This document shows, piece by piece, positions 5,633 through 64,000 of a DNA stretch of 64,000 nt (its first letter is position 1; each line of letters starts with the position of its first letter). The DNA comes from an uncultured archaeon (lineage in GTDB: Archaea; Nanobdellota; Nanobdellia; Pacearchaeales; GW2011-AR1), in NCBI GenBank assembly GCA_902386025.1, contig CABMHR010000001.1, forward strand, positions 177,108 through 241,107, given 5' to 3'. The position numbers and the translations under genes are program-made. The notes below the pieces were generated by a model. That model worked only from the letters and a program-made list of their open reading frames with translations. It was not told where the DNA came from and did no database searches.

Positions 5633-6091
5633 ATGATTTTTATTGTAAAAGTAACAACAAACAAGGAAGAAAGGGTATTGGACATGATTGCAGAGAGAGC
5701 TCAGAAAAAAAATCTGAATGTTTTTGCAGTTCTTCGCCCTCACGGACTTAGAGGATATGTTCTTTTGGAGGCAGAAGACAGGGAATCTGCAGAAGAATCT
5801 GCTTTTGATTTGCCTTATGTAAAAGGAATCATAGGAAAAACAATCAACTACGACGAGATAAAAAATATGATTGAACCTTCTGCAACAACTATTTCAATAA
5901 AAGAAGGAGATATTGTTGAGATGATTGCAGAGCCATTCAAGAAAGAAAAAGCAAAAGTTTTAAGAATAGACAAGCAGAAAGAAGAAGTTGTAGTAGTATT
6001 GCTTGGGGCAGTTGTTCCTTTATCTGTAACGGTTAAACTGGACAATGTCAAAGTAATAAGAAGAGAAGAAGGAGAAGAAAATGCAAATTAA
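5633..6091 (+). CDS. spt5: Transcription elongation factor Spt5 (NusG family, NGN + KOW)
   Basis: NGN-like N-terminus and a KOW motif (GDIVEMIAEPFKKEKAKV). Context is SecE-Spt5-L11. Confidence 0.8.
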   Translation: MIFIVKVTTNKEERVLDMIAERAQKKNLNVFAVLRPHGLRGYVLLEAEDRESAEESAFDLPYVKGIIGKTINYDEIKNMIEPSATTISIKEGDIVEMIAEPFKKEKAKVLRIDKQKEEVVVVLLGAVVPLSVTVKLDNVKVIRREEGEENAN

Positions 6092-6764
6092 ACTTTTGGT
6101 TGATGGTGGAGCAATGAAGCCGGGTCCTGCACTTAGCCAGAAGCTCGGCCCATTGGGGATTCCAGTAAATCAAGTTATTCAAAAAGTAAATGAAGCAACA
6201 AAGCCTTTTGACGGAATTCAGGTTCCTGTTGAATTGAATGTCAATCCTTCAACAAGAGAATTTGACGTAAAAGTTTTCTCGCCTCCTGTTTCTGGATTAG
6301 TAAAAAGAGAATTAAAAATTGAGAAAGGTTCTGGACTTCAGAAAAAAGTAAAAGTTGGAAATGCTTCAATAGAACAAATAATTTCTTTAGCAAATACAAA
6401 ATCCCAAAACTTGCTGTGCAAGGATTTTAAGTCAGCAGTAAAAACTATTGTAGGAACCTGCGCCAGCTTGGGAATATTAATTGAAAACAAGCCCGCTGTT
6501 GAGATAGAGCAGGAAATTAATGAAGGAAAATATGACAAGGAGATAAATGCAATGAAAACAGAAACTTCTCCTGAAAAGAAAAAAGAGCTTGAAGCATACT
6601 TTTCAAAGATAAAGAAGGAACAGGACAAGCTATTGCAGCAGGAACAGGCTGCTAAAGCAGCAGCTGAAGAAGCCAAGACAGCTGAAGCTCCTGCCGCATC
6701 TGCAGAAAAGAAACCAGAAGAGAAAACTGCCAAAGCTCCTGCCAAGGCTTCGCCGAAGAAATAA
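6081..6764 (+). CDS. rpl11: 50S ribosomal protein L11 (uL11) with ~65-aa Lys/Ala/Glu-rich C-terminal extension
   Basis: Core reads MKPGPALSQKLGPLGIP...VKVFSPP. The tail reads KAAAEEAKTAEAPAASAEKKPEEKTAKAPAKASPKK. Confidence 0.85.
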   Translation: MQIKLLVDGGAMKPGPALSQKLGPLGIPVNQVIQKVNEATKPFDGIQVPVELNVNPSTREFDVKVFSPPVSGLVKRELKIEKGSGLQKKVKVGNASIEQIISLANTKSQNLLCKDFKSAVKTIVGTCASLGILIENKPAVEIEQEINEGKYDKEINAMKTETSPEKKKELEAYFSKIKKEQDKLLQQEQAAKAAAEEAKTAEAPAASAEKKPEEKTAKAPAKASPKK

Positions 6765-6805
6765 TAAGAACAATTTATAAATTAATAATTGTTCTTTTTT
6801 TTAAG

Positions 6806-6878
6806 GGGGCTATGGGGTAGTCTGGTAGCCTTCGAGGTTTGGGACCTCGCGACCCCGGTTCAAATCCGGGTAGCCCCA
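6806..6878 (+). tRNA. tRNA-Pro (anticodon UGG)
   Basis: Hand-folded cloverleaf. Acceptor GGGGCTA/TAGCCCC, anticodon stem CGAGG/CCTCG, loop TTTGGGA, T-arm CCCGG-TTCAAAT-CCGGG, discriminator A. No encoded CCA. Confidence 0.85.
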
Positions 6879-6957
6879 TTGCACGAGTGCCGTGCAAGAA
6901 ATAAAATGCAACGAGAGCAGGCTTGAGTTCGGTAGCTCAATTTAAGGAAGACAAAAA

Positions 6958-7176
6958 ATGCCATCAAAATCAAAAAAAACAAAATCAGCAGGAAGATTCG
7001 GAGCAAGATACGGGCGTTCAGTGAAAACTAAATTAGTTAATGTAGAGCAGAAGCAGAGAAAAAAGCAAAAATGCCCATACTGCGGAAAACTTGGAGTGAA
7101 AAGAGTTTCAAAAGGAATATGGGAGTGTTCAAAATGCGATAAAAAATTTGCATCAGACATATACTACTTACAATAA
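6958..7176 (+). CDS. rpl37ae: 50S ribosomal protein L37Ae (eL43)
   Basis: GRFGARYG...CPYCGK...WECSKCDKKFA zinc ribbon. Confidence 0.8.
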   Translation: MPSKSKKTKSAGRFGARYGRSVKTKLVNVEQKQRKKQKCPYCGKLGVKRVSKGIWECSKCDKKFASDIYYLQ

Positions 7177-7183
7177 TAATAAA

Positions 7184-7321
7184 ATGGTTACCTACAAATG
7201 TTTCAAGTGCGAGAAGAAAGTTCTTAGTAACAACCTGGATAAGAGATTTGTCTGCCCTTTTTGCGGAAGCAAGATTTTTTACAAGCCAAGAACACATGTT
7301 AAGAAAATAAAGGCAGAATAA
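7184..7321 (+). CDS. rpoP: DNA-directed RNA polymerase subunit P (RpoP/Rpb12)
   Basis: 45-aa ORF, not in the track: MVTYKCFKCEKK...RFVCPFCGSKIFYKPRT. Conserved L37ae-RpoP-PfdB synteny. Confidence 0.75.
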   Translation: MVTYKCFKCEKKVLSNNLDKRFVCPFCGSKIFYKPRTHVKKIKAE

Positions 7322-7323
7322 AA

Positions 7324-7641
7324 ATGGACGAAGAAAAAATTCAGGAAATGCAGCTTCTTGAACAAAAACTGCAGAATACAATTCTTCAAAAGCAGGCGTT
7401 TCAGATGGAGCTTGCAGAAACTGCTTCTGCATTGGCTGAATTGGAAAAATCAGGAGATGAAGTCTTTAAAATAATCGGACAGTTGATGATTAAATCTGAA
7501 AAGTCAAAGATGAAAGAAGAACTTCTTGACAAGCAGAAAATTCTGAATTTAAGAATAGCCTCTTTGGACAAGCAGGAAAAAATTCTGGCAGAACAATCGG
7601 AAAAATTCAGGGAAGAAATAACAAAATATTCAAAAAAATAA
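7324..7641 (+). CDS. pfdB: Prefoldin beta subunit
   Basis: Coiled-coil, ~105 aa, downstream of rpoP. Confidence 0.65.
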   Translation: MDEEKIQEMQLLEQKLQNTILQKQAFQMELAETASALAELEKSGDEVFKIIGQLMIKSEKSKMKEELLDKQKILNLRIASLDKQEKILAEQSEKFREEITKYSKK

Positions 7642-55782: not shown

Positions 55783-55854
55783 TGGGACCACTGGGAGTCG
55801 AACCCAGGACACCTACGTCTTCAGCGTAGTGCTCTCCCGCTGAGCTATGGTCCC
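55783..55854 (-). tRNA. tRNA-Phe (anticodon GAA)
   Basis: Hand-folded cloverleaf: GGGACCA-TA-GCTC-AGCGGGA-GAGC-A-CTACG-CTGAAGA-CGTAG-GTGTC-CTGGG-TTCGACT-CCCAG-TGGTCCC-A. Confidence 0.85.
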
Positions 55855-56387: not shown

Positions 56388-56722
56388 GTAAGTTGGGTAT
56401 AAGCCACTTTTTGTCGTTCGTCGTTAAATTAATAGCAAACCAAACGTGTTAACATTCAACTATGCGGTTTCAAACCTTGCACCAGTCAAGTTGCTCGTTT
56501 CATCAAATCTCATCCTTCAAAGTTCCAACCAAGTTTTCATAACTCGGGATGAGCTGTGCCGTTTCTGTAACAGAGCTTTGCTTCACAGCAATCCATTTTC
56601 ACGGATGACTTTGTCGCAGACAAAATTGCCTGCGGGTGGGCGGACTTTCCTCAGAATTAGCGATTATATTTTATCACTTGTCTGTTTGGAGACTAAATCC
56701 CGAAGTTAACTGCCCAACTTAC
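56388..56722 (-). ncRNA. rnpB: RNase P RNA (archaeal type)
   Basis: Terminal helix GUAAGUUGGG...CCCAACUUAC. GAGGAAAGUCCGCCCACC (CR-I) lies ~66 nt from the 5' end on the minus strand. ACAGAAACGG and ...GUGGCUUAUACCC are near the 3' end. The region is GC-enriched relative to the AT-rich coding regions. Confidence 0.65.
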
Positions 56723-58920: not shown

Positions 58921-59090
58921 GTAATCTCTCTAAAAAATCAGGTGATTTTTTTTCTTTTTTATTCAATTTTTATTTTGTTCGGTTTTTTTAATTTTATATT
59001 TAGTTAATGCTCGTAAATAATTATGAGGTTAAGTGTGTAACAGAAACATTTAAATATTATAACACTTATAATTATTATAATAATTATAAA

Positions 59091-59303
59091 ATGGAAAACA
59101 CAACAATTGCTCTAAGTAAAGAGTTAAAAGAAAAGATAAGCGAATTTGGAAATAAAGGAGAAAGTTTTTCTGACATCTTGCAGAGAATGTACAATAGTGC
59201 TGTTCAAAGACAGCTTAATGACTTTTTGTTTAATGAAAAAGGATTTATTCCCATAGAAGAAGCTATGGCGGAGGCTAAAAAGAAGTGGCCAAAGTCGAGA
59301 TAA
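59091..59303 (+). CDS. Putative antitoxin (small DNA-binding protein)
   Basis: MENTTIALSKELKEKISEF... Start chosen at the internal Met. Confidence 0.35.
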   Translation: MENTTIALSKELKEKISEFGNKGESFSDILQRMYNSAVQRQLNDFLFNEKGFIPIEEAMAEAKKKWPKSR

Positions 59304-59626
59304 GTGAAAAATTAAAAGAAGATATCTATAAAAAATTTAAAGAAGAATCAACTGAAATCTTTAATTTAATTTATTCTTTAAGAGAAAATCCAAAAAAAGG
59401 AAAAGAAGTAGGGCAGGTATCTGGAATACTTATAAAAGAGTTAAGATATAAATCATTCAGATTTTATTTTATTACAAATGGATATCAATTAAGAGTTCTT
59501 GACTTGGCTGAATTGCAGGATTTAGTCATAAGGTTTGTAAGAATGTCAGACAAGAAATCACAGCAGAAAGTAATTGATGAGATAAAGCAGATTTTAAGAA
59601 GTTTTGGGGAGAAAGGATTTAAATGA
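59285..59626 (+). CDS. RelE/ParE-superfamily (HigB/Gp49-like) toxin
   Basis: LIKELRYKSFRFYFITNG... Confidence 0.45.
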   Translation: MAKVEISEKLKEDIYKKFKEESTEIFNLIYSLRENPKKGKEVGQVSGILIKELRYKSFRFYFITNGYQLRVLDLAELQDLVIRFVRMSDKKSQQKVIDEIKQILRSFGEKGFK

Positions 59627-59850
59627 AATCAATTAAACTGAAACTTCCAAAAAGATTTAACCCAAAAATTGTAATATTCTCGCTAATTGCCCTCGGCTTT
59701 ATTGTTCTAACCTTTTTTGTAAATCCTTATTTTATCATAGGAGCAGTTGTGCTGATGATTCTAAATCGAAGAGAGATAATGGGAAAGAAAGGGAAATAAA
59801 ATTCCAAAACCTTTAAATTCCCCCTTGCTTTTTATTATAAAGGTGATAAA

Positions 59851-60141
59851 ATGGATGCAACTATTCTTGCAGGGCTTCTTGGAGGAATTGGCGGAGTTAC
59901 ACGCGGATTTGTCGGATTGCTGAAAGCATTATCAATGAGAAGAAGAATTTTATGGGGATATTATGCAATAACTGTTCTTGTTGCTTTAGTCATAGGAGTT
60001 TTTGTGGGAATTATTTTCAACTTCGATGTTCGGCTTTCGCTTCTTGCAGGTTATGCAGGAACAGATATTCTTGAGGGAATTTACAAGAGCTTTTCTGTCC
60101 AGAAAACATATATCGGAAGTGCAAAAGCAAGTAAAAAATAA
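59851..60141 (+). CDS. Small membrane protein
   Basis: Three TM helices. Confidence 0.35.
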   Translation: MDATILAGLLGGIGGVTRGFVGLLKALSMRRRILWGYYAITVLVALVIGVFVGIIFNFDVRLSLLAGYAGTDILEGIYKSFSVQKTYIGSAKASKK

Positions 60142-60181
60142 TTAGCGAAAAATTTATAAGGGTGTATCAATTGATATAACT

Positions 60182-60478
60182 ATGTTAAAATTAATAAGGG
60201 AACAAAATCCAACAGCAAGATTTCCAAGATTAGATACGGTTATGTTTATAGAAGAATTCATAAAAGAAAATGACGGAGAGTTCAGAAAAAAGCAACTTTG
60301 GGAACATCTTCCTAAAAAGATGATGTATCAAACATTCTCTGTTGTTTTGGACTATCTTATATTATCTGGAAAAGTGTCTGTTGATGCAGAAGGAAAAATT
60401 GGATGGATATTTTATCCTGAAGATGTTGAAAAACTGCTAAAGAGGACTCATTTATTCTGGAAGAGAAATGAAAAGTAA
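60182..60478 (+). CDS. Hypothetical protein (possible antitoxin for the downstream RelE-like gene)
   Basis: 98 aa. Its 3' end overlaps the toxin gene. Confidence 0.3.
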   Translation: MLKLIREQNPTARFPRLDTVMFIEEFIKENDGEFRKKQLWEHLPKKMMYQTFSVVLDYLILSGKVSVDAEGKIGWIFYPEDVEKLLKRTHLFWKRNEK

Positions 60479-60788
60479 TATCACTTTTATTGATAGTAAA
60501 ATAAAGATTGCCTTTGAGAAACTAGAAAGAACTGATTTGGAAAAATATAAATTAATTAAAAGGGCATTTGAAGATTTAGAGAATAATGCTTTCTGTGGGA
60601 TACAAATACCTAAACATTTAATCCCAAAAGAGTATATTAAGAAGTTCAATGTGAAAAATCTATGGAAATATAATTTACCTGGTGCCTGGAGATTGATTTA
60701 TAGTATTGAAGGCAAAAATCTAAATGTCTTCTCTATAATCCTTGAATGGCTTGACCACAAAGAATATGAAAGGAAATTCCATTATTAA
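60468..60788 (+). CDS. RelE/ParE-family toxin
   Basis: NLWKYNLPGAWRLIYSIEGKNLNVFSIILEWLDHKEYERKF. Confidence 0.5.
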   Translation: MKSNITFIDSKIKIAFEKLERTDLEKYKLIKRAFEDLENNAFCGIQIPKHLIPKEYIKKFNVKNLWKYNLPGAWRLIYSIEGKNLNVFSIILEWLDHKEYERKFHY

Positions 60789-60796
60789 TACATAAA

Positions 60797-61174
60797 ATGA
60801 CAAACCAGCAATTAGTTGATTTCATAAATGAAGCAAGAAGAAGAGGATTTTCTGACGCGCAGATAAAAGATGCACTTGTCAGGCACTGCTGGCCTGCTGA
60901 AAAAGTTGACTCTGCATTTGAGTTTTTAACTCCCAAATTCAAATCAAAAAATCAGGTTGCAATATTTCTTTCAGATGATTTGCTTGAAATAATAGAAAAG
61001 CGTGCAAAAAAGAATATGCAGACAATATCGGAACAAATTGAGGAAATTCTAAGAAAAAGCTGTGTTAGTTACAAGGGCGGGAAATCCATAAATACAAACC
61101 CAGAAAAGTTAGACGACACCTTGGTGGGTTTGTTCAGCAGGAGAAGAGGCGGTGGGAGAAGGAGAAAGGCGTAA
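60797..61174 (+). CDS. Ribbon-helix-helix (CopG-like) domain protein with Arg/Gly tail
   Basis: AIFLSDDLLEIIEKRAKKNMQTISEQIEEIL. Confidence 0.35.
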   Translation: MTNQQLVDFINEARRRGFSDAQIKDALVRHCWPAEKVDSAFEFLTPKFKSKNQVAIFLSDDLLEIIEKRAKKNMQTISEQIEEILRKSCVSYKGGKSINTNPEKLDDTLVGLFSRRRGGGRRRKA

Positions 61175-61214
61175 AAATGGGAGATTTTTAATATAGAAGC
61201 AAACTCTTGATTAC

Positions 61215-61778
61215 ATGGCTGATTTATCTGAAAAAGAAACAAGAAAGGAATTGATTGATCCTATTTTGGAAAGGACGGGGTGGAAAGTTAAGGGGCATTA
61301 TGTTAAAGAAGAAATTAATCCAGTTAAATCTAATTTTTCAACTAAAGAATATGTCGGGCTTGATGCAGTTATCTCTATGCCTTCGGGAATTTTCAAGCCT
61401 TACGCAGGAGTTTCAACAGCAGTTCTTTATTTCACAAAAGGAGAGCCTACAGAAAAAGTCTGGTTTTACAATATGGAAGCTGACGGGTTTAGTTTAGATG
61501 ATAAGAGAACAGAGCAACCCGATAGAAATGACATTCCTGACATTTTAGAAAGATTTGAAAAAAGAAATAAAGAAGATAACGAAAACAGATTTGAAAAGCA
61601 CTTTTTTGTTCCATTAGAGGAGATTAAAGAAAAGGATTGGGATCTCTCAATTAACAGATACAAAAAGGAGAGAGAAAAGAAAACCAATTACAGAGAAAGC
61701 AAGATTATTATTGAAGAAGCAAAGAAAGAAGTAAAAGAACTTTTGAAAGGATTTGATGAGTTGGAGAAATTAATTTAG
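61215..61778 (+). pseudogene. Type I restriction-modification remnant: HsdR-like N-terminal motif fused to the C-terminal region of HsdM
   Basis: N-terminus ETRKELIDPILERTGWKV (HSDR_N-like). Then AVISMPSGIFKPYAGVSTAVLYFTKGEPTEKVWFYNMEADGF...DLSINRY (HsdM C-terminus). There is no SAM-binding or NPPF region. Confidence 0.45.
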
Positions 61779-61780
61779 CT

Positions 61781-61820
61781 TTTTAGAAATCTATTTCCCT
61801 AAAATAAGCAGTAGAAGATT
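61781..61820. repeat. Direct repeat DR1 (38-40 nt) flanking the E1-like/TraB cassette
   Basis: ttttagaaatctatttccctaaaataagcagtagaagatt. Near-identical to 63622..63659. Confidence 0.8.
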
Positions 61821-62869
61821 TAAAATTCCCGCCACATAACATTAAAATCCATAAAATCAATTTCTGCGAATCTGTTTATATTCAAATTCCCTTTCCCGAT
61901 TAGATATTTGAAAATTTCCATTATCTGAATATTTGCAATCGCTCCTGCAATTGGTCCGAGATTGCCTGTTTGTTCAATATCTTTTACTTTTTCCAGACTG
62001 CTTAAAGAATCACTTGCTCTTTGAAACTGCAGAAATTCATTAAATGTTTTGCTCTTTCCTGGAACTATAATCGGTCCTACCATCCCAAGATGGAGATTAT
62101 ACCCCCCAGCAACACAATATGAAATATTTTCTCTCACAGCGTATTCATTGATAATCCTGCTGGTTTCCTCAACAGAGGGAGAATCTGCGCAATTAACAAG
62201 AAAATCAGAGCCAGAAACAATTCTTTCCAAATCTTCTTCTTTAGAAACCATTTTTTTAAAATGGAGAATTCTTGCATCAGGTAATCTATCTTTAATCGCG
62301 TCTACTTTATATTTTCCTATATCTCTTGAATCAAAAAATAGTTGTCTGTTAAGATTACTTTCTTCCACAACATCCGGGTCGCTAATTCTTATCTCCCCAA
62401 CACCTAACTGATACAGCCCATTCACAATCCATGTTCCTATTCCCCCAACTCCAAAAACAGAGACTGTTGAATTTCTGATTTTTTTCTGAAGAGAAAGTGT
62501 TTCTTCCCATGAATCACTTAATTCATCAATGAAAGAAATCTGTCTGGAGTATCTTTTTTCTATCTGGGTTTCATCATATCTTCTTGCAATTCCCTCATGT
62601 TCTAAAGCCATTAAACAATTATTTATTTTTTTCCAATTATACTTTCCGCCAAGGTTAGAAAATAACTCTTCTTCTGTTTTCCCCTCTTTTATTTCATTAA
62701 TTATTTCTTTGACTAAAAAATCTACTCCGAATTTTTTAATTTTTCTTGTAGCAGTAAAAATTACCTGATAAATGTCATCTGATTCTTTAAGAATATAAAT
62801 TGAATCCTTGAGCTTCAATTTTTTCATTTTACTTTTCTCCCCATGAAATTTTTTCATCTGTTGGTTCAA
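61820..62869 (-). CDS. E1-like ThiF/MoeB/MccB-family adenylyltransferase with N-terminal RRE/peptide-clamp-like wHTH domain
   Basis: RYSRQISF...VFGVGGIGTWIVNGLYQLGVGEIRISDPDVVEESNLNRQ. The ~110-aa N-terminal extension has a PqqD-like beta-beta-beta-helix pattern. Confidence 0.65.
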   Translation of the reverse strand: MNQQMKKFHGEKSKMKKLKLKDSIYILKESDDIYQVIFTATRKIKKFGVDFLVKEIINEIKEGKTEEELFSNLGGKYNWKKINNCLMALEHEGIARRYDETQIEKRYSRQISFIDELSDSWEETLSLQKKIRNSTVSVFGVGGIGTWIVNGLYQLGVGEIRISDPDVVEESNLNRQLFFDSRDIGKYKVDAIKDRLPDARILHFKKMVSKEEDLERIVSGSDFLVNCADSPSVEETSRIINEYAVRENISYCVAGGYNLHLGMVGPIIVPGKSKTFNEFLQFQRASDSLSSLEKVKDIEQTGNLGPIAGAIANIQIMEIFKYLIGKGNLNINRFAEIDFMDFNVMWREF

Positions 62870-63398
62870 GAACTAATTCTCCTTTTGAATTAGAAGGATA
62901 AATCATTTTATATCCCTTAAAAGAAGTCCTTAATGGGGAATCTTCCCTTAAGTGCCATGAACCTGTAATAACAATTATTGGTTTTGCAGTTTTCCCAAGA
63001 TATTCTTTAATTGTTTCAACATTTTTTCTTTCTCTTTTATCCAGCAAGGTTTCTATTTCTTTTTGCTCTTCTTCATTTAATTCACTTTGATTTTTAATTT
63101 TCTCCTGCAAGTTTTTATCAAACCCAAAATCTTTGAAATCCATTCCGATAAGGTTTATCTTTTTTTCCATGCATAATTTAATAAGATTTTCAATTTCGCT
63201 TACAGAAGTCATATTGGAAATATCCTTTTTTTCAAGAATTTCAATAAATTTAGCATCTGAATCTAAAATATTATCTTCTAGCATTTCAGATAAAATAAAT
63301 TCAGGATTATACTTTTTAATTACCTCTTCTTGCTTTTCAAAATCTTTAATAAATCCGTGGGTATCACCTAATAAAATTAATTTGGGAGACAGATTCAT
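62829..63398 (-). CDS. TraB/PrgY/Tiki-family protein (putative peptide-processing metalloprotease)
   Basis: LILLGDTHG...KPIIVITGSWHL (GxxH...GxxH). The track start is a TTG, so start trimmed to the ATG. Confidence 0.5.
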   Translation of the reverse strand: MNLSPKLILLGDTHGFIKDFEKQEEVIKKYNPEFILSEMLEDNILDSDAKFIEILEKKDISNMTSVSEIENLIKLCMEKKINLIGMDFKDFGFDKNLQEKIKNQSELNEEEQKEIETLLDKRERKNVETIKEYLGKTAKPIIVITGSWHLREDSPLRTSFKGYKMIYPSNSKGELVLEPTDEKISWGEK

Positions 63399-63403
63399 CT
63401 GAT

Positions 63404-63553
63404 TTACATCCAATATTTTATGCTTGTTCCGCCATAATGAACTTTTTCAGTCAAAAGAACCAAGCCTTCATAACTTCCTTTTAAATTTTGTTCTTTTTTC
63501 TCTTGTCCAGTTATGAGTTCTGCTTTCTCTAAACTTTTTTCAAGTTTTTCCAT
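63404..63553 (-). CDS. 49-aa candidate precursor peptide
   Basis: MEKLEKSLEKAELITGQEKKEQNLKGSYEGLVLLTEKVHYGGTSIKYWM. It sits 5 nt upstream of the TraB-like gene. Confidence 0.35.
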   Translation of the reverse strand: MEKLEKSLEKAELITGQEKKEQNLKGSYEGLVLLTEKVHYGGTSIKYWM

Positions 63554-63621
63554 AATAAATTATAATATATAGTCCTTTTAAGCATTTCTATATGTTACAA
63601 TTCCAATTATCCCCTAAATTA

Positions 63622-63659
63622 TTTTAGAAATATTTCCCTGAAATAAGCAGTAGAAGATT
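63622..63659. repeat. Direct repeat DR2
   Basis: ttttagaaatatttccctgaaataagcagtagaagatt. Confidence 0.8.
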
Positions 63660-63699
63660 ATATCCATCTTTATGATGGATTTTTCCTATTTCTAGAAAA

Positions 63700-64000
63700 A
63701 CATTAATGAGGCTTTTAGTAGTTGTCTGCTGAAATTCTCGCGTGAGCTTGAATCTTACACAGCAACTCTATCAACGTCTTCTTCTTAGACGGCCTTTGTT
63801 GAGTCGTTTTGCGGATGGCTTCGAGCTTAGATGCATTCAGCTCTTATCCATACAATGCGTAGCTATGCAGCCTGCCATATGACAACTGCTCACCAGAGGC
63901 ATCCGAATCCCGTTCCTTTCGTACTAGAGATTCGTTCCACTCACTCAACGACACACCTAGTAGATATCATACAAACTGTCTCGCGACGTTCTTAACCCAG
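63700..64000 (-). rRNA. rrl: 23S rRNA, 3'-terminal region (partial; gene continues beyond the window)
   Basis: The reverse complement contains a sarcin-ricin-loop-like CTAGTACGAAAGGAAC, plus GATAAGAGCTGAATGCATCTAAGCTCGAAGCC and GACGTTGATAGAG. These are conserved LSU domain VI sequences. Confidence 0.85.

Follow-up and report, generated by a model that had tools for sequence, protein, structure and literature searches.

A repeat-bounded gene trio beside the 23S rRNA gene of a Pacearchaeales archaeon: a candidate mobile unit for RiPP-type peptide modification

The question raised by this locus is what three small genes are doing between two nearly identical direct repeats, just downstream of a 23S rRNA gene, and how they came to stand there. 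The locus belongs to an uncultured archaeon of the Pacearchaeales (contig CABMHR010000001.1); the whole stretch of DNA that was analysed, referred to below as the window, is 64,000 nt long, and its right edge falls inside the 23S rRNA gene. The genes encode a short peptide, a small hydrolase and an E1-like enzyme. The answer that we prefer, and to which we give a probability of roughly 60% as a whole, is that the cassette is an inserted mobile unit, that the repeat is a duplicated ~40 bp of the 23S rRNA 3' trailer including the 3' strand of its flanking (processing) helix, and that the genes encode a peptide-modification pathway of the type known from peptides that are made on the ribosome and modified after translation (RiPPs), more exactly an archaeal branch of the systems in which a RiPP recognition element (RRE) is fused to a ThiF domain.

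The three genes and their products

Three minus-strand genes, tightly packed and reading in the same direction as the 23S rRNA gene, lie between the repeats, preceded by a promoter-like element:

63574..63593, minus strand: promoter-like element ATATAGAAATGCTTAAAAGG, matching the GTATAGAAA-N2-TTTAAATA type and lying 21-40 nt ahead of the ATG of the peptide gene
63404..63553, minus strand: gene of a 49-aa precursor-like peptide, MEKLEKSLEKAELITGQEKKEQNLKGSYEGLVLLTEKVHYGGTSIKYWM, recognised from the open reading frame (ORF) and its homologues
62829..63398, minus strand: gene of a 189-aa minimal hydrolase of the Tiki/ChaN/Ere superfamily, a putative peptidase or esterase
61820..62827, minus strand: gene of a 335-aa two-domain E1/ThiF-like adenylyltransferase (RRE-like domain ~62543-62827, ThiF domain ~61829-62551)

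The initial annotation had described three co-oriented genes. The genes are real, on the minus strand, but two of the lengths had to be corrected: the probable start of the hydrolase is the ATG at 63398, 5 nt past the peptide stop, giving 189 and not 194 aa, and that of the E1-like protein is the ATG at 62827, one base past the preceding stop (TAAAATG), giving 335 and not 349 aa. The G+C content of the cassette, compared with the neighbouring sequence, gave no foreign signature.

The E1-like protein has 396 matches in the protein database. The best 120 of them, from Woese-, Pace- and Nanoarchaeia, align with it end to end at 61-73% identity. Loci were collected around the E1-like gene (80 metagenome loci; ~85 loci overall), and the same trio was seen in every neighbourhood examined, on dozens of DPANN contigs whose surroundings otherwise differ. 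In nearly all sufficiently flanked loci among the 80, the hydrolase gene stands immediately upstream of the E1-like gene, and a small ORF stands upstream of the hydrolase gene (~60 loci, yielding 55 distinct peptides); in a locus from Nanoarchaeia (L001) the order is peptide, E1, hydrolase. The expectation that a cassette of this kind would be a rarity in archaea does not hold, as it is widespread in the three groups.

Pfam ThiF (PF00899) covers residues ~93-333 of the E1-like protein with E = 2.6e-40, in agreement with the domain assignment of the initial annotation. In the AlphaFold model (predicted local distance difference test, pLDDT, 86.7) this domain follows an N-terminal domain built of strands 3-6, 10-16, 19-24 and 29-34, helices 37-46, 52-59 and 65-77, and a last strand 81-84. 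A Foldseek search with the model placed 26 MccB and PaaA chains at the top, aligned over ~330 columns, and ThiF chains next, over ~230; MccB and PaaA were the only full-length matches, i.e. those that take in both domains. Judged by the modelled fold, the N-terminal domain appears to be of the RRE or peptide-clamp type. Such a domain, in an MccB-type architecture, had been proposed earlier, and the proposal stands as far as the model and the full-length matches go, while the sequence alone gives no significant match (PqqD, E = 0.075): Pfam gave faint PqqD and winged-helix matches at most, and a profile of the domain compared with PDB sequences returned nothing useful.

The residues expected to do the work of an adenylating enzyme are strictly kept. 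GxGGxG, D150, N-R-Q at 160-162, K174 and D215 are invariant in 30 of 30 homologues, and this invariance of nucleotide-binding and catalytic residues argues, at the level of sequence, for an active enzyme and not for a docking scaffold. Another view is that the E1-like protein leaves the C-terminus of the peptide untouched, either as a scaffold of the kind used in YcaO azoline formation or because the trio is an addiction or defence module instead of a biosynthetic one. In favour of this, ThiF-like proteins do serve as docking domains in the pathways of linear azol(in)e-containing peptides (PMC12596934), YcaO and nitroreductase genes are found 4-6 kb from the cassette in one locus (L004), the unit is mobile and sits in an accessory island, and PADLOC gives weak matches to the E1 domain of the E1-E2 type of the cyclic oligonucleotide-based antiphage signalling system. 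These matches, however, span the generic E1 core only, the peptide and the hydrolase have no PADLOC match, and the YcaO gene is not in the conserved unit; with the catalytic residues invariant, we hold both versions to be highly improbable.

Cysteines of the E1-like protein are found solely at positions 71, 213 and 238. C71, in the last helix of the RRE-like domain (62615-62617, minus strand), and C213, in an N-C-A-D motif, do not vary among the 30 homologues aligned, and C238 hardly does.

Conservation of the peptide was counted over the 55 distinct sequences, with positions numbered from the C-terminus. The peptides are 42-64 aa long and have an N-terminal motif ME[KNT]LE..L and a C-terminal block Y-x-G-L...Y-x-G-[G/P]-T-S-I-K-Y-W-M. 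W at -2 is invariant (55/55), and four other positions are nearly so (Y at -3, T at -7 and Y at -22 in 54/55 each, G at -20 in 53/55). The last residue is Met in 53 of the 55 and Ile or Val in the other two, never Asn. An exhaustive search of a 1.8-billion-protein library added ten further representatives with the same tail; the peptide query against a word-indexed protein database returned only the query itself. The small ORF is therefore conserved next to homologous cassettes; a lack of such conservation had been named at the outset as an argument against a peptide-modification role.

Could this be ordinary activation of a ubiquitin-like protein or sulfur carrier, where the partner would be cut after Gly-Gly and its new C-terminus adenylated or thiocarboxylated, to serve in tRNA thiolation, in the making of cofactors or in the tagging of proteins? 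The public record indeed names the protein 'SAMP-activating enzyme E1', NCBIfam finds similarity to ThiF, MoeB and UbaA, and in the window the peptide carries a GG, seven residues before its end. The NCBIfam scores are, however, far under the cut-offs (65-90 bits against 266-450). The second position of the GG is G in 30 and P in 22 of the 55 peptides, whereas the seven residues after it, TSIKYWM, are near-invariant, and the partner ends in KYWM and not in Gly-Gly; processing after GG, which had been suggested, is unlikely. In addition, we judge that a beta-grasp fold would not fit into a peptide of 42-64 aa, a CxxC zinc motif is missing from the E1-like protein, and the folds that this protein matches over its full length are those of MccB and PaaA and not those of MoeB or ThiF. 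Co-occurrence with MoaD/ThiS-like genes had been named at the outset as the sign of sulfur-carrier activation; in the neighbourhoods examined no MoaD/ThiS, E2 or JAMM gene belongs to the conserved trio. Taken together, ordinary carrier activation seems to us very unlikely.

The hydrolase is assigned more loosely. Its scores with Pfam TraB_PrgY_gumN and Cofac_haem_bdg, 17.7 and 18.1 bits, miss the cut-offs of 26.8 and 27.7, and therefore its membership of the Tiki/TraB/ChaN/Ere group is given at superfamily level only. The earlier assignment to the TraB/PrgY/Tiki family is accordingly kept for the superfamily fold, an alpha/beta fold with a parallel beta-sheet core, and for the His/Glu motifs, and dropped at the level of the Pfam families. 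G11, T13, H14, E38, R122, G146, W148 and H149 are invariant, and position 12, judged by eye, is D, E or S across the homologues (D in the window). The family thus has a catalytic set of the 2His/2Glu type, consisting of two GxxH motifs and acidic residues. A profile of the hydrolase family had no match among PDB sequences.

The region ahead of the peptide gene was aligned for 53 loci, anchored at the peptide ATG. An element of the GTATAGAAA-N2-TTTAAATA type is seen at about -42 to -22 in many loci, the window included, and for 25 of these 53 loci the best TATA-like match lies between -27 and -31. By its sequence and position the element may well be a promoter, which the cassette would then carry along as its own.

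Some cassettes depart from the simple plan. A fourth gene of ~300 aa lies between the peptide and hydrolase genes in seven of them (L020:1904-2788, L066:3462-4346, L076:3453-4388, L069:330-1259, L056:349-1272, L057:3410-4321 and L072:938-1861). Its product has a D-x-x-x-D-x-H...GKPT motif and a faint polyprenyl-synthase match (E = 0.11), and its profile had no match among PDB sequences. Three of these loci (L056, L057 and L072) have the hydrolase gene in inverted orientation and an E1 protein whose C-terminal tail contains Cys.

The repeats and the 23S rRNA trailer

The features between the ribosomal RNA and the far end of the cassette are as follows:

63695..64000, minus strand: 3' end of the 23S rRNA gene, which continues beyond the window (248.8 bits with Rfam LSU_rRNA_archaea, covering positions 2674-2987 of a model of 2987)
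63662..63680, minus strand: trailer hairpin (ATCCATC / GATGGAT stem) between the rRNA end and the repeat, from reading the sequence
63622..63659, no strand: direct repeat copy 2, rRNA-proximal, 38 nt, of which the first ~20, by comparison with relatives, make up the 3' strand of the helix that flanks the 23S rRNA
61781..61820, no strand: direct repeat copy 1, distal, 40 nt, running from the E1 stop codon to 2 nt short of the methyltransferase stop

The cassette is the co-oriented, downstream neighbour of the 23S rRNA gene, whose 3' end is at 63695. Copy 2 begins 35 nt past this end by the Rfam placement and reads AATCTTCTACTGCTTATTTCAGGGAAATATTTCTAAAA on the rRNA-sense strand; the two copies differ by one substitution and a 2-nt indel. 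The initial description of near-identical 38-40-nt repeats that bracket ~1.8 kb, the second just downstream of the 23S 3' end, was correct on all these points. A 29-nt core of the repeat has exactly two matches in the window, compared with zero expected from 100 shuffles of the 64 kb. At the distal end, copy 1 fills the gap between the convergent E1 and methyltransferase genes, all but 2 nt, and the E1 stop codon shares the first base or two with it.

The origin of the repeat can be read from relatives. A 19-mer of the repeat, searched for in a set with a single genome of each species, matched L006 and L010, both Candidatus Woesearchaeota, besides chance bacterial matches. In both relatives the match is on the rRNA-sense strand, immediately upstream of the 23S 5' end, and in L010 the reverse complement of that stretch lies immediately downstream of the 23S 3' end. 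The rRNA-sense strand of the window carries the reverse complement of the 5'-flank stretch of these relatives, and therefore the repeat appears to hold the 3' strand of a helix that flanks the 23S rRNA. Copy 2 is identical to the 23S 5' flank of L006 and L010 over 21 nt, and copy 1 has one change that still permits a G-U pair. The predicted duplexes with the L010 5' flank have -43.1 kcal/mol (copy 2) and -36.1 kcal/mol (copy 1), against a mean of -15.4 and a best value of -29.5 kcal/mol in shuffled controls. The complementary flanks are seen directly in L010, and in the window the pairing is deduced from identity to the relatives' 5' flank. The trailer hairpin is missing from the trailer of L010.

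A different reading of the same data is that the repeat is a functional RNA or DNA element present in two copies, either a shared terminator or a second 3' strand that would loop out a transcript of 23S rRNA and cassette. That both copies pair with the relatives' 5' flank, the substitution in copy 1 keeping a G-U pair, would fit such a role, as would the 10-nt palindrome GAAATATTTC in the repeat and the close fit of copy 1 into the convergent-gene gap. Against this, only two copies exist in 64 kb, the repeats at homologous cassettes are unrelated to it (one is the 3' end of a protein-coding gene), the cassette has its own conserved promoter-like element, and the syntenic L010 has a single copy and no cassette. 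We consider a functional pair unlikely. The related suggestion, made at the start, that the repeat might be a common terminator motif fails on the copy number and on the conservation of the stem strand in the two Woesearchaeota relatives.

A cassette near the ribosomal RNA was met once more, in L001, where it lies 3.9 kb downstream of the 23S rRNA 3' end (L001:1-1937 and 5800-7614). A 33-nt repeat of 82% identity, found in that locus 35 nt past the 23S end and 43 nt past the cassette, was judged to be at chance level. Other RNA genes in the window are an archaeal RNase P RNA (123 bits, 56388-56722, minus strand) and a tRNA-Phe gene (55783-55854, minus strand), each a few kb from the cassette region, and a tRNA-Pro gene (6806-6878, plus strand).

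Insertion and surroundings of the cassette

L010 also provides a syntenic site without the cassette. Its genes for a 232-aa membrane protein, a 94-aa protein and an RNA recognition motif (RRM) protein match window genes at 44-66% identity, and only ~130 nt, with a single copy of the repeat, separate the 23S end from the next gene. The window holds ~4.6 kb at that place, i.e. small accessory genes, a RelE-like toxin, a ribbon-helix-helix (RHH) protein, a methyltransferase fragment and the cassette.

Direct repeats around the cassette are not confined to the window. Sixty loci with flank on both sides were scanned with a cut-off of at least 38 bits, and nine of them have the cassette bracketed in this way (L015, L086, L040, L045, L084, the window, L029, L059 and L033). 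As controls, 150 random 1.75-kb segments of the window gave no such repeat and 24 off-cassette segments gave one. That one is a 63.9-bit direct repeat in L067, which may mark another repeat-flanked insertion in that contig. The flanking repeats are 19-68 nt long, duplicate local sequence and are unrelated between loci; the left one ends 37-152 nt ahead of the peptide ATG, and the repeat-bounded unit measures 1.84-2.19 kb in seven loci. From this recurrent bracketing of homologous units by locus-specific repeats it follows that the trio most probably moves as a block, and it would do so carrying no recombinase gene, as none was found in or adjoining the window unit. The original proposal of a site-specific insertion into the rRNA trailer is thus upheld as to insertion, by the cassette-free L010 and by the repeats elsewhere, and not as to site specificity, given repeats that vary and the missing recombinase.

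Several trivial or known sources of the repeats were considered and set aside. Most of the repeats are imperfect, which argues against an assembly artefact, and this source was rejected. A Xer/dif-type element was rejected as the repeats have no shared core, and an integron attC site was likewise rejected as an explanation.

The second informative case is L015, whose E1-like protein is the closest homologue (73% identity). Here the cassette comes after RtcB, whose 3' end is present twice, as a 68-nt repeat around the cassette. The two copies differ at six positions, all of them within the first 18 nt and most of them synonymous, which would be expected of an insert that had brought along the RtcB 3' end of another lineage. 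We propose that a self-contained unit of ~1.8 kb would have been inserted immediately downstream of the 23S helix in the window, duplicating ~40 bp of trailer. The route that we favour is a circular copy that bears a short stretch of conserved neighbouring sequence and integrates by a single crossover (Campbell type).

A less favoured route is that an integrase or transposase acting in trans inserts the cassette, the repeats being attachment-site or long target-site duplications. It would account for repeats that tightly enclose the same promoter-to-stop unit at several loci, with the left one always directly upstream of the promoter-like element, and the window cassette does lie in an island with toxin-antitoxin and restriction-modification remnants. 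It is less easily reconciled with repeats of 19-68 nt and unrelated sequence, with the absence of a recombinase gene in or beside the unit and of an end motif or terminal inverted repeat seen by eye, and with the polar, synonymous differences in L015, which fit a borrowed homologous arm. We regard a recombinase acting in trans as doubtful and keep to single-crossover integration.

The surroundings of the window cassette on the side away from the rRNA are:

59007-61778, plus strand: accessory island, missing from the syntenic L010, between the RRM-protein gene and the cassette
60468-60788, plus strand: RelE-like toxin of the accessory island
60797-61174, plus strand: RHH protein of the accessory island
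61215..61778, plus strand: truncated C-terminal fragment of a type I methyltransferase (HsdM), outside the cassette at the outer insertion edge (Pfam N6_Mtase, positions 207-309 of 311)

The methyltransferase fragment also matches positions 349-489 of 491 of the PADLOC model MTase_I. The island further contains a pair of small ORFs that overlap (98 and 113 aa), two small ORFs for membrane proteins and one ORF of 98 aa.

Genes of the RNA ligase RtcB are found within ~3 kb of the cassette, in varying orientations, in at least 8 of the ~85 loci (L003, L015, L016, L022, L027, L031, L053 and L079). RtcB also ligates archaeal pre-rRNA that has been cut at processing stems, which makes its presence curious in view of the 23S-stem site in the window; the adjacency may merely reflect ancestral synteny or the use of a conserved anchor. 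In L086 (335-386 and 2319-2370) the flanking repeat is 52 nt long and GC-rich in an AT-rich genome, and it has a 13-mer, TTGAAGCCTTTGG, in common with the RtcB-derived repeat of L015. That it could itself be an RtcB 3' end was rejected, as it lies in no open reading frame and none extends into it. When seven or eight further loci with repeats, L086 among them, were scanned with Rfam and for tRNAs, no RNA gene was found.

Two loci have further clusters of possible interest. In L004 (10747-12939) the YcaO and nitroreductase-family genes mentioned above are accompanied by a 70-aa ORF and lie on the opposite strand from the cassette; they could form a separate azoline-type cluster. Beside the repeat-flanked cassette of L015 (3070-4789) there is an apparent second RiPP-like cluster. 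It encodes a 208-aa Tiki/TraB-like protein in which the motifs GGTSYYIHG and GCAHE occur, and it has an 81-aa ORF rich in Cys and another ORF of 273 aa, cut off by the contig edge, whose Cys motifs resemble those of SPASM.

Proposed pathway and comparison with known systems

The following pathway is suggested by analogy to known enzymes. The N-terminal clamp of the E1-like enzyme would bind the peptide, and its ThiF domain, using ATP, would adenylate the C-terminal carboxylate, i.e. that of Met; activation of this carboxylate is probably the task of the enzyme. The acyl-adenylate could then be attacked from within the molecule, by a nucleophile of the invariant T-S-I-K-Y-W-M tail, so that a macrocycle results, or else be resolved by another acceptor; candidates are the tail Lys, Ser/Thr, Tyr, a backbone amide or an external amine. 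The Tiki-like hydrolase would trim the leader, or hydrolyse an ester or amide in the product.

There are a number of points that weigh against this interpretation. Support comes from genes, folds, conservation and repeats, and the peptide-modifying chemistry is argued from analogy; we infer the chemistry, the cleavage site and the integration mechanism alike. The sequence of the N-terminal domain is not significantly that of an RRE (a PqqD match in 4 of 17 members, best E 0.075). The three-gene unit has no exporter or immunity gene, and the conservation of core peptide and enzyme is unusually strong for RiPP natural products. As to insertion, the window's own 23S 5' flank lies outside the window, so that its processing helix is derived from relatives, and 51 of the 60 loci have no flanking repeat. 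A circular-contig test and a scan of viral contigs found no circular contig and no viral copy of the cassette, the latter scan giving no relative of the E1-like protein, and by eye no conserved end motif is evident at the unit boundaries.

We keep a further view in mind because the conservation is extreme, because exporter and immunity genes are lacking and because EnfB is able to amidate C-termini with free amines, namely that the conserved 42-64-aa product is a minimal E2-independent modifier and not a secreted natural product. The MccB-like E1 would activate the C-terminal Met and attach the product to an amine, be it of a protein, a lipid or another cell component, and its processing or removal would fall to the Tiki-like hydrolase. 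The recombinase-free cassette would spread among DPANN archaea by way of conserved anchors, for instance the 23S processing stem and RtcB. We think this quite unlikely, and return to the RiPP-type pathway for the comparison.

It is instructive to set the pathway beside the systems that resemble it. RRE-ThiF enzymes adenylate the C-terminal carboxylate of their precursor and differ in how they resolve the adenylate (PMC12250964, PMC12596934, PMC12150305, 10.1101/2024.05.13.593846). According to the same four sources, MccB forms a phosphoramidate and GrcB a thiolactone; EnfB forms a macrocyclic imide or amide on a C-terminal motif WI(/V)V(/I)I(/V), which is WWIVI in EnfA; and IndF, whose cluster has a peptidase gene as well, makes an indolylamide on a tail of the sequence NWYFI. 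One study that mined RRE-ThiF enzymes covered bacterial RefSeq only (PMC12150305), a survey of archaeal RiPPs makes no mention of ThiF enzymes (PMC12144867), and our literature search found no description of the cassette family. The RRE-ThiF-like peptide-modifying systems characterised and mined so far are all bacterial. The occurrence of the trio in genome-reduced DPANN archaea suggests a physiological or host-interaction role rather than that of a sporadic antibiotic, and the trio is small enough for in vitro reconstitution, so that its chemistry is directly testable.

With the microcin C7 synthetase of E. coli, MccB, and its substrate MccA the cassette has in common the N-terminal peptide clamp (RRE) joined to a ThiF adenylation domain, and a short precursor gene within the same operon. 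The MccA heptapeptide, however, ends in an Asn that is essential for the succinimide and N-P chemistry, whereas the peptides here have 42-64 aa and end in Met; the strict microcin C subtype (Asn to isoAsn-N-P-nucleotide) is excluded, as no peptide of the 55 ends in Asn. The cassette also lacks counterparts of MccC, D, E and F, the identity is ~20-23%, and the host is an archaeon. In the pantocin A system PaaA modifies an internal Glu-Glu of PaaP, but no conserved Glu-Glu is evident in the core of the cassette peptide, and counterparts of the oxygenase PaaB and the exporter PaaC are lacking.

The hydrolase resembles the Tiki/TraB-PrgY/ChaN/erythromycin-esterase/RRSP superfamily in keeping the two GxxH motifs, the Glu and the Arg, and differs from it in being, with 189 aa, a minimal domain without membrane or accessory domains. 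Tiki, PrgY and RRSP act on short peptides or peptide termini, and Ere on esters (PMC6254334); Tiki/TraB peptidases have been predicted in graspetide loci (PMC8939145).

In its mobility the unit recalls integrative elements bounded by attL and attR, or Campbell-type integration, in that the insert is enclosed by direct repeats which derive from a conserved gene upstream of it, either from the 3' end or from the flank of this gene, which is the 23S rRNA gene in the window and RtcB in L015. It differs in having no integrase, in repeats that vary per site, and in a size of only ~1.8-2.2 kb. The landing pads are conserved sequences, an rRNA processing stem and an RtcB 3' end, and the locus-specific repeats would make this a clean case of a functional gene block that relocates without a recombinase of its own. 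As in the archaeal pre-rRNA processing stem, the repeat appears to carry the 3' strand of a ~20-bp helix whose 5' strand lies upstream of the 23S rRNA in the relatives; unlike it, the window has a second copy of this strand 1.84 kb further downstream, and a bulge-helix-bulge motif was not identified, though no search aimed at one was made.

A parallel in architecture and pathway logic, as opposed to structures or sequences, is found in the macrocyclases of Firmicutes, i.e. IndF/IndA/IndP, EnfB/EnfA and GrcB/GrcA. Both groups combine an RRE-ThiF enzyme with a leader-core precursor that ends in an aromatic-rich motif, here KYWM, and in the macrocyclases the adenylated carboxylate is attacked by a nucleophile inside the peptide. 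The cassette differs in that its peptidase has the Tiki fold and not that of M16, in that no transporter or quorum-sensing gene is present, and in that the Trp at -2 is too near the C-terminus for a ring of the Ind type. The conserved region of the cassette peptide comprises 22 residues, and the family is near-ubiquitous and strongly conserved in one archaeal clade. The cassette would be an archaeal branch of the RRE-ThiF-like class, with a different partner hydrolase and a conserved peptide tail.

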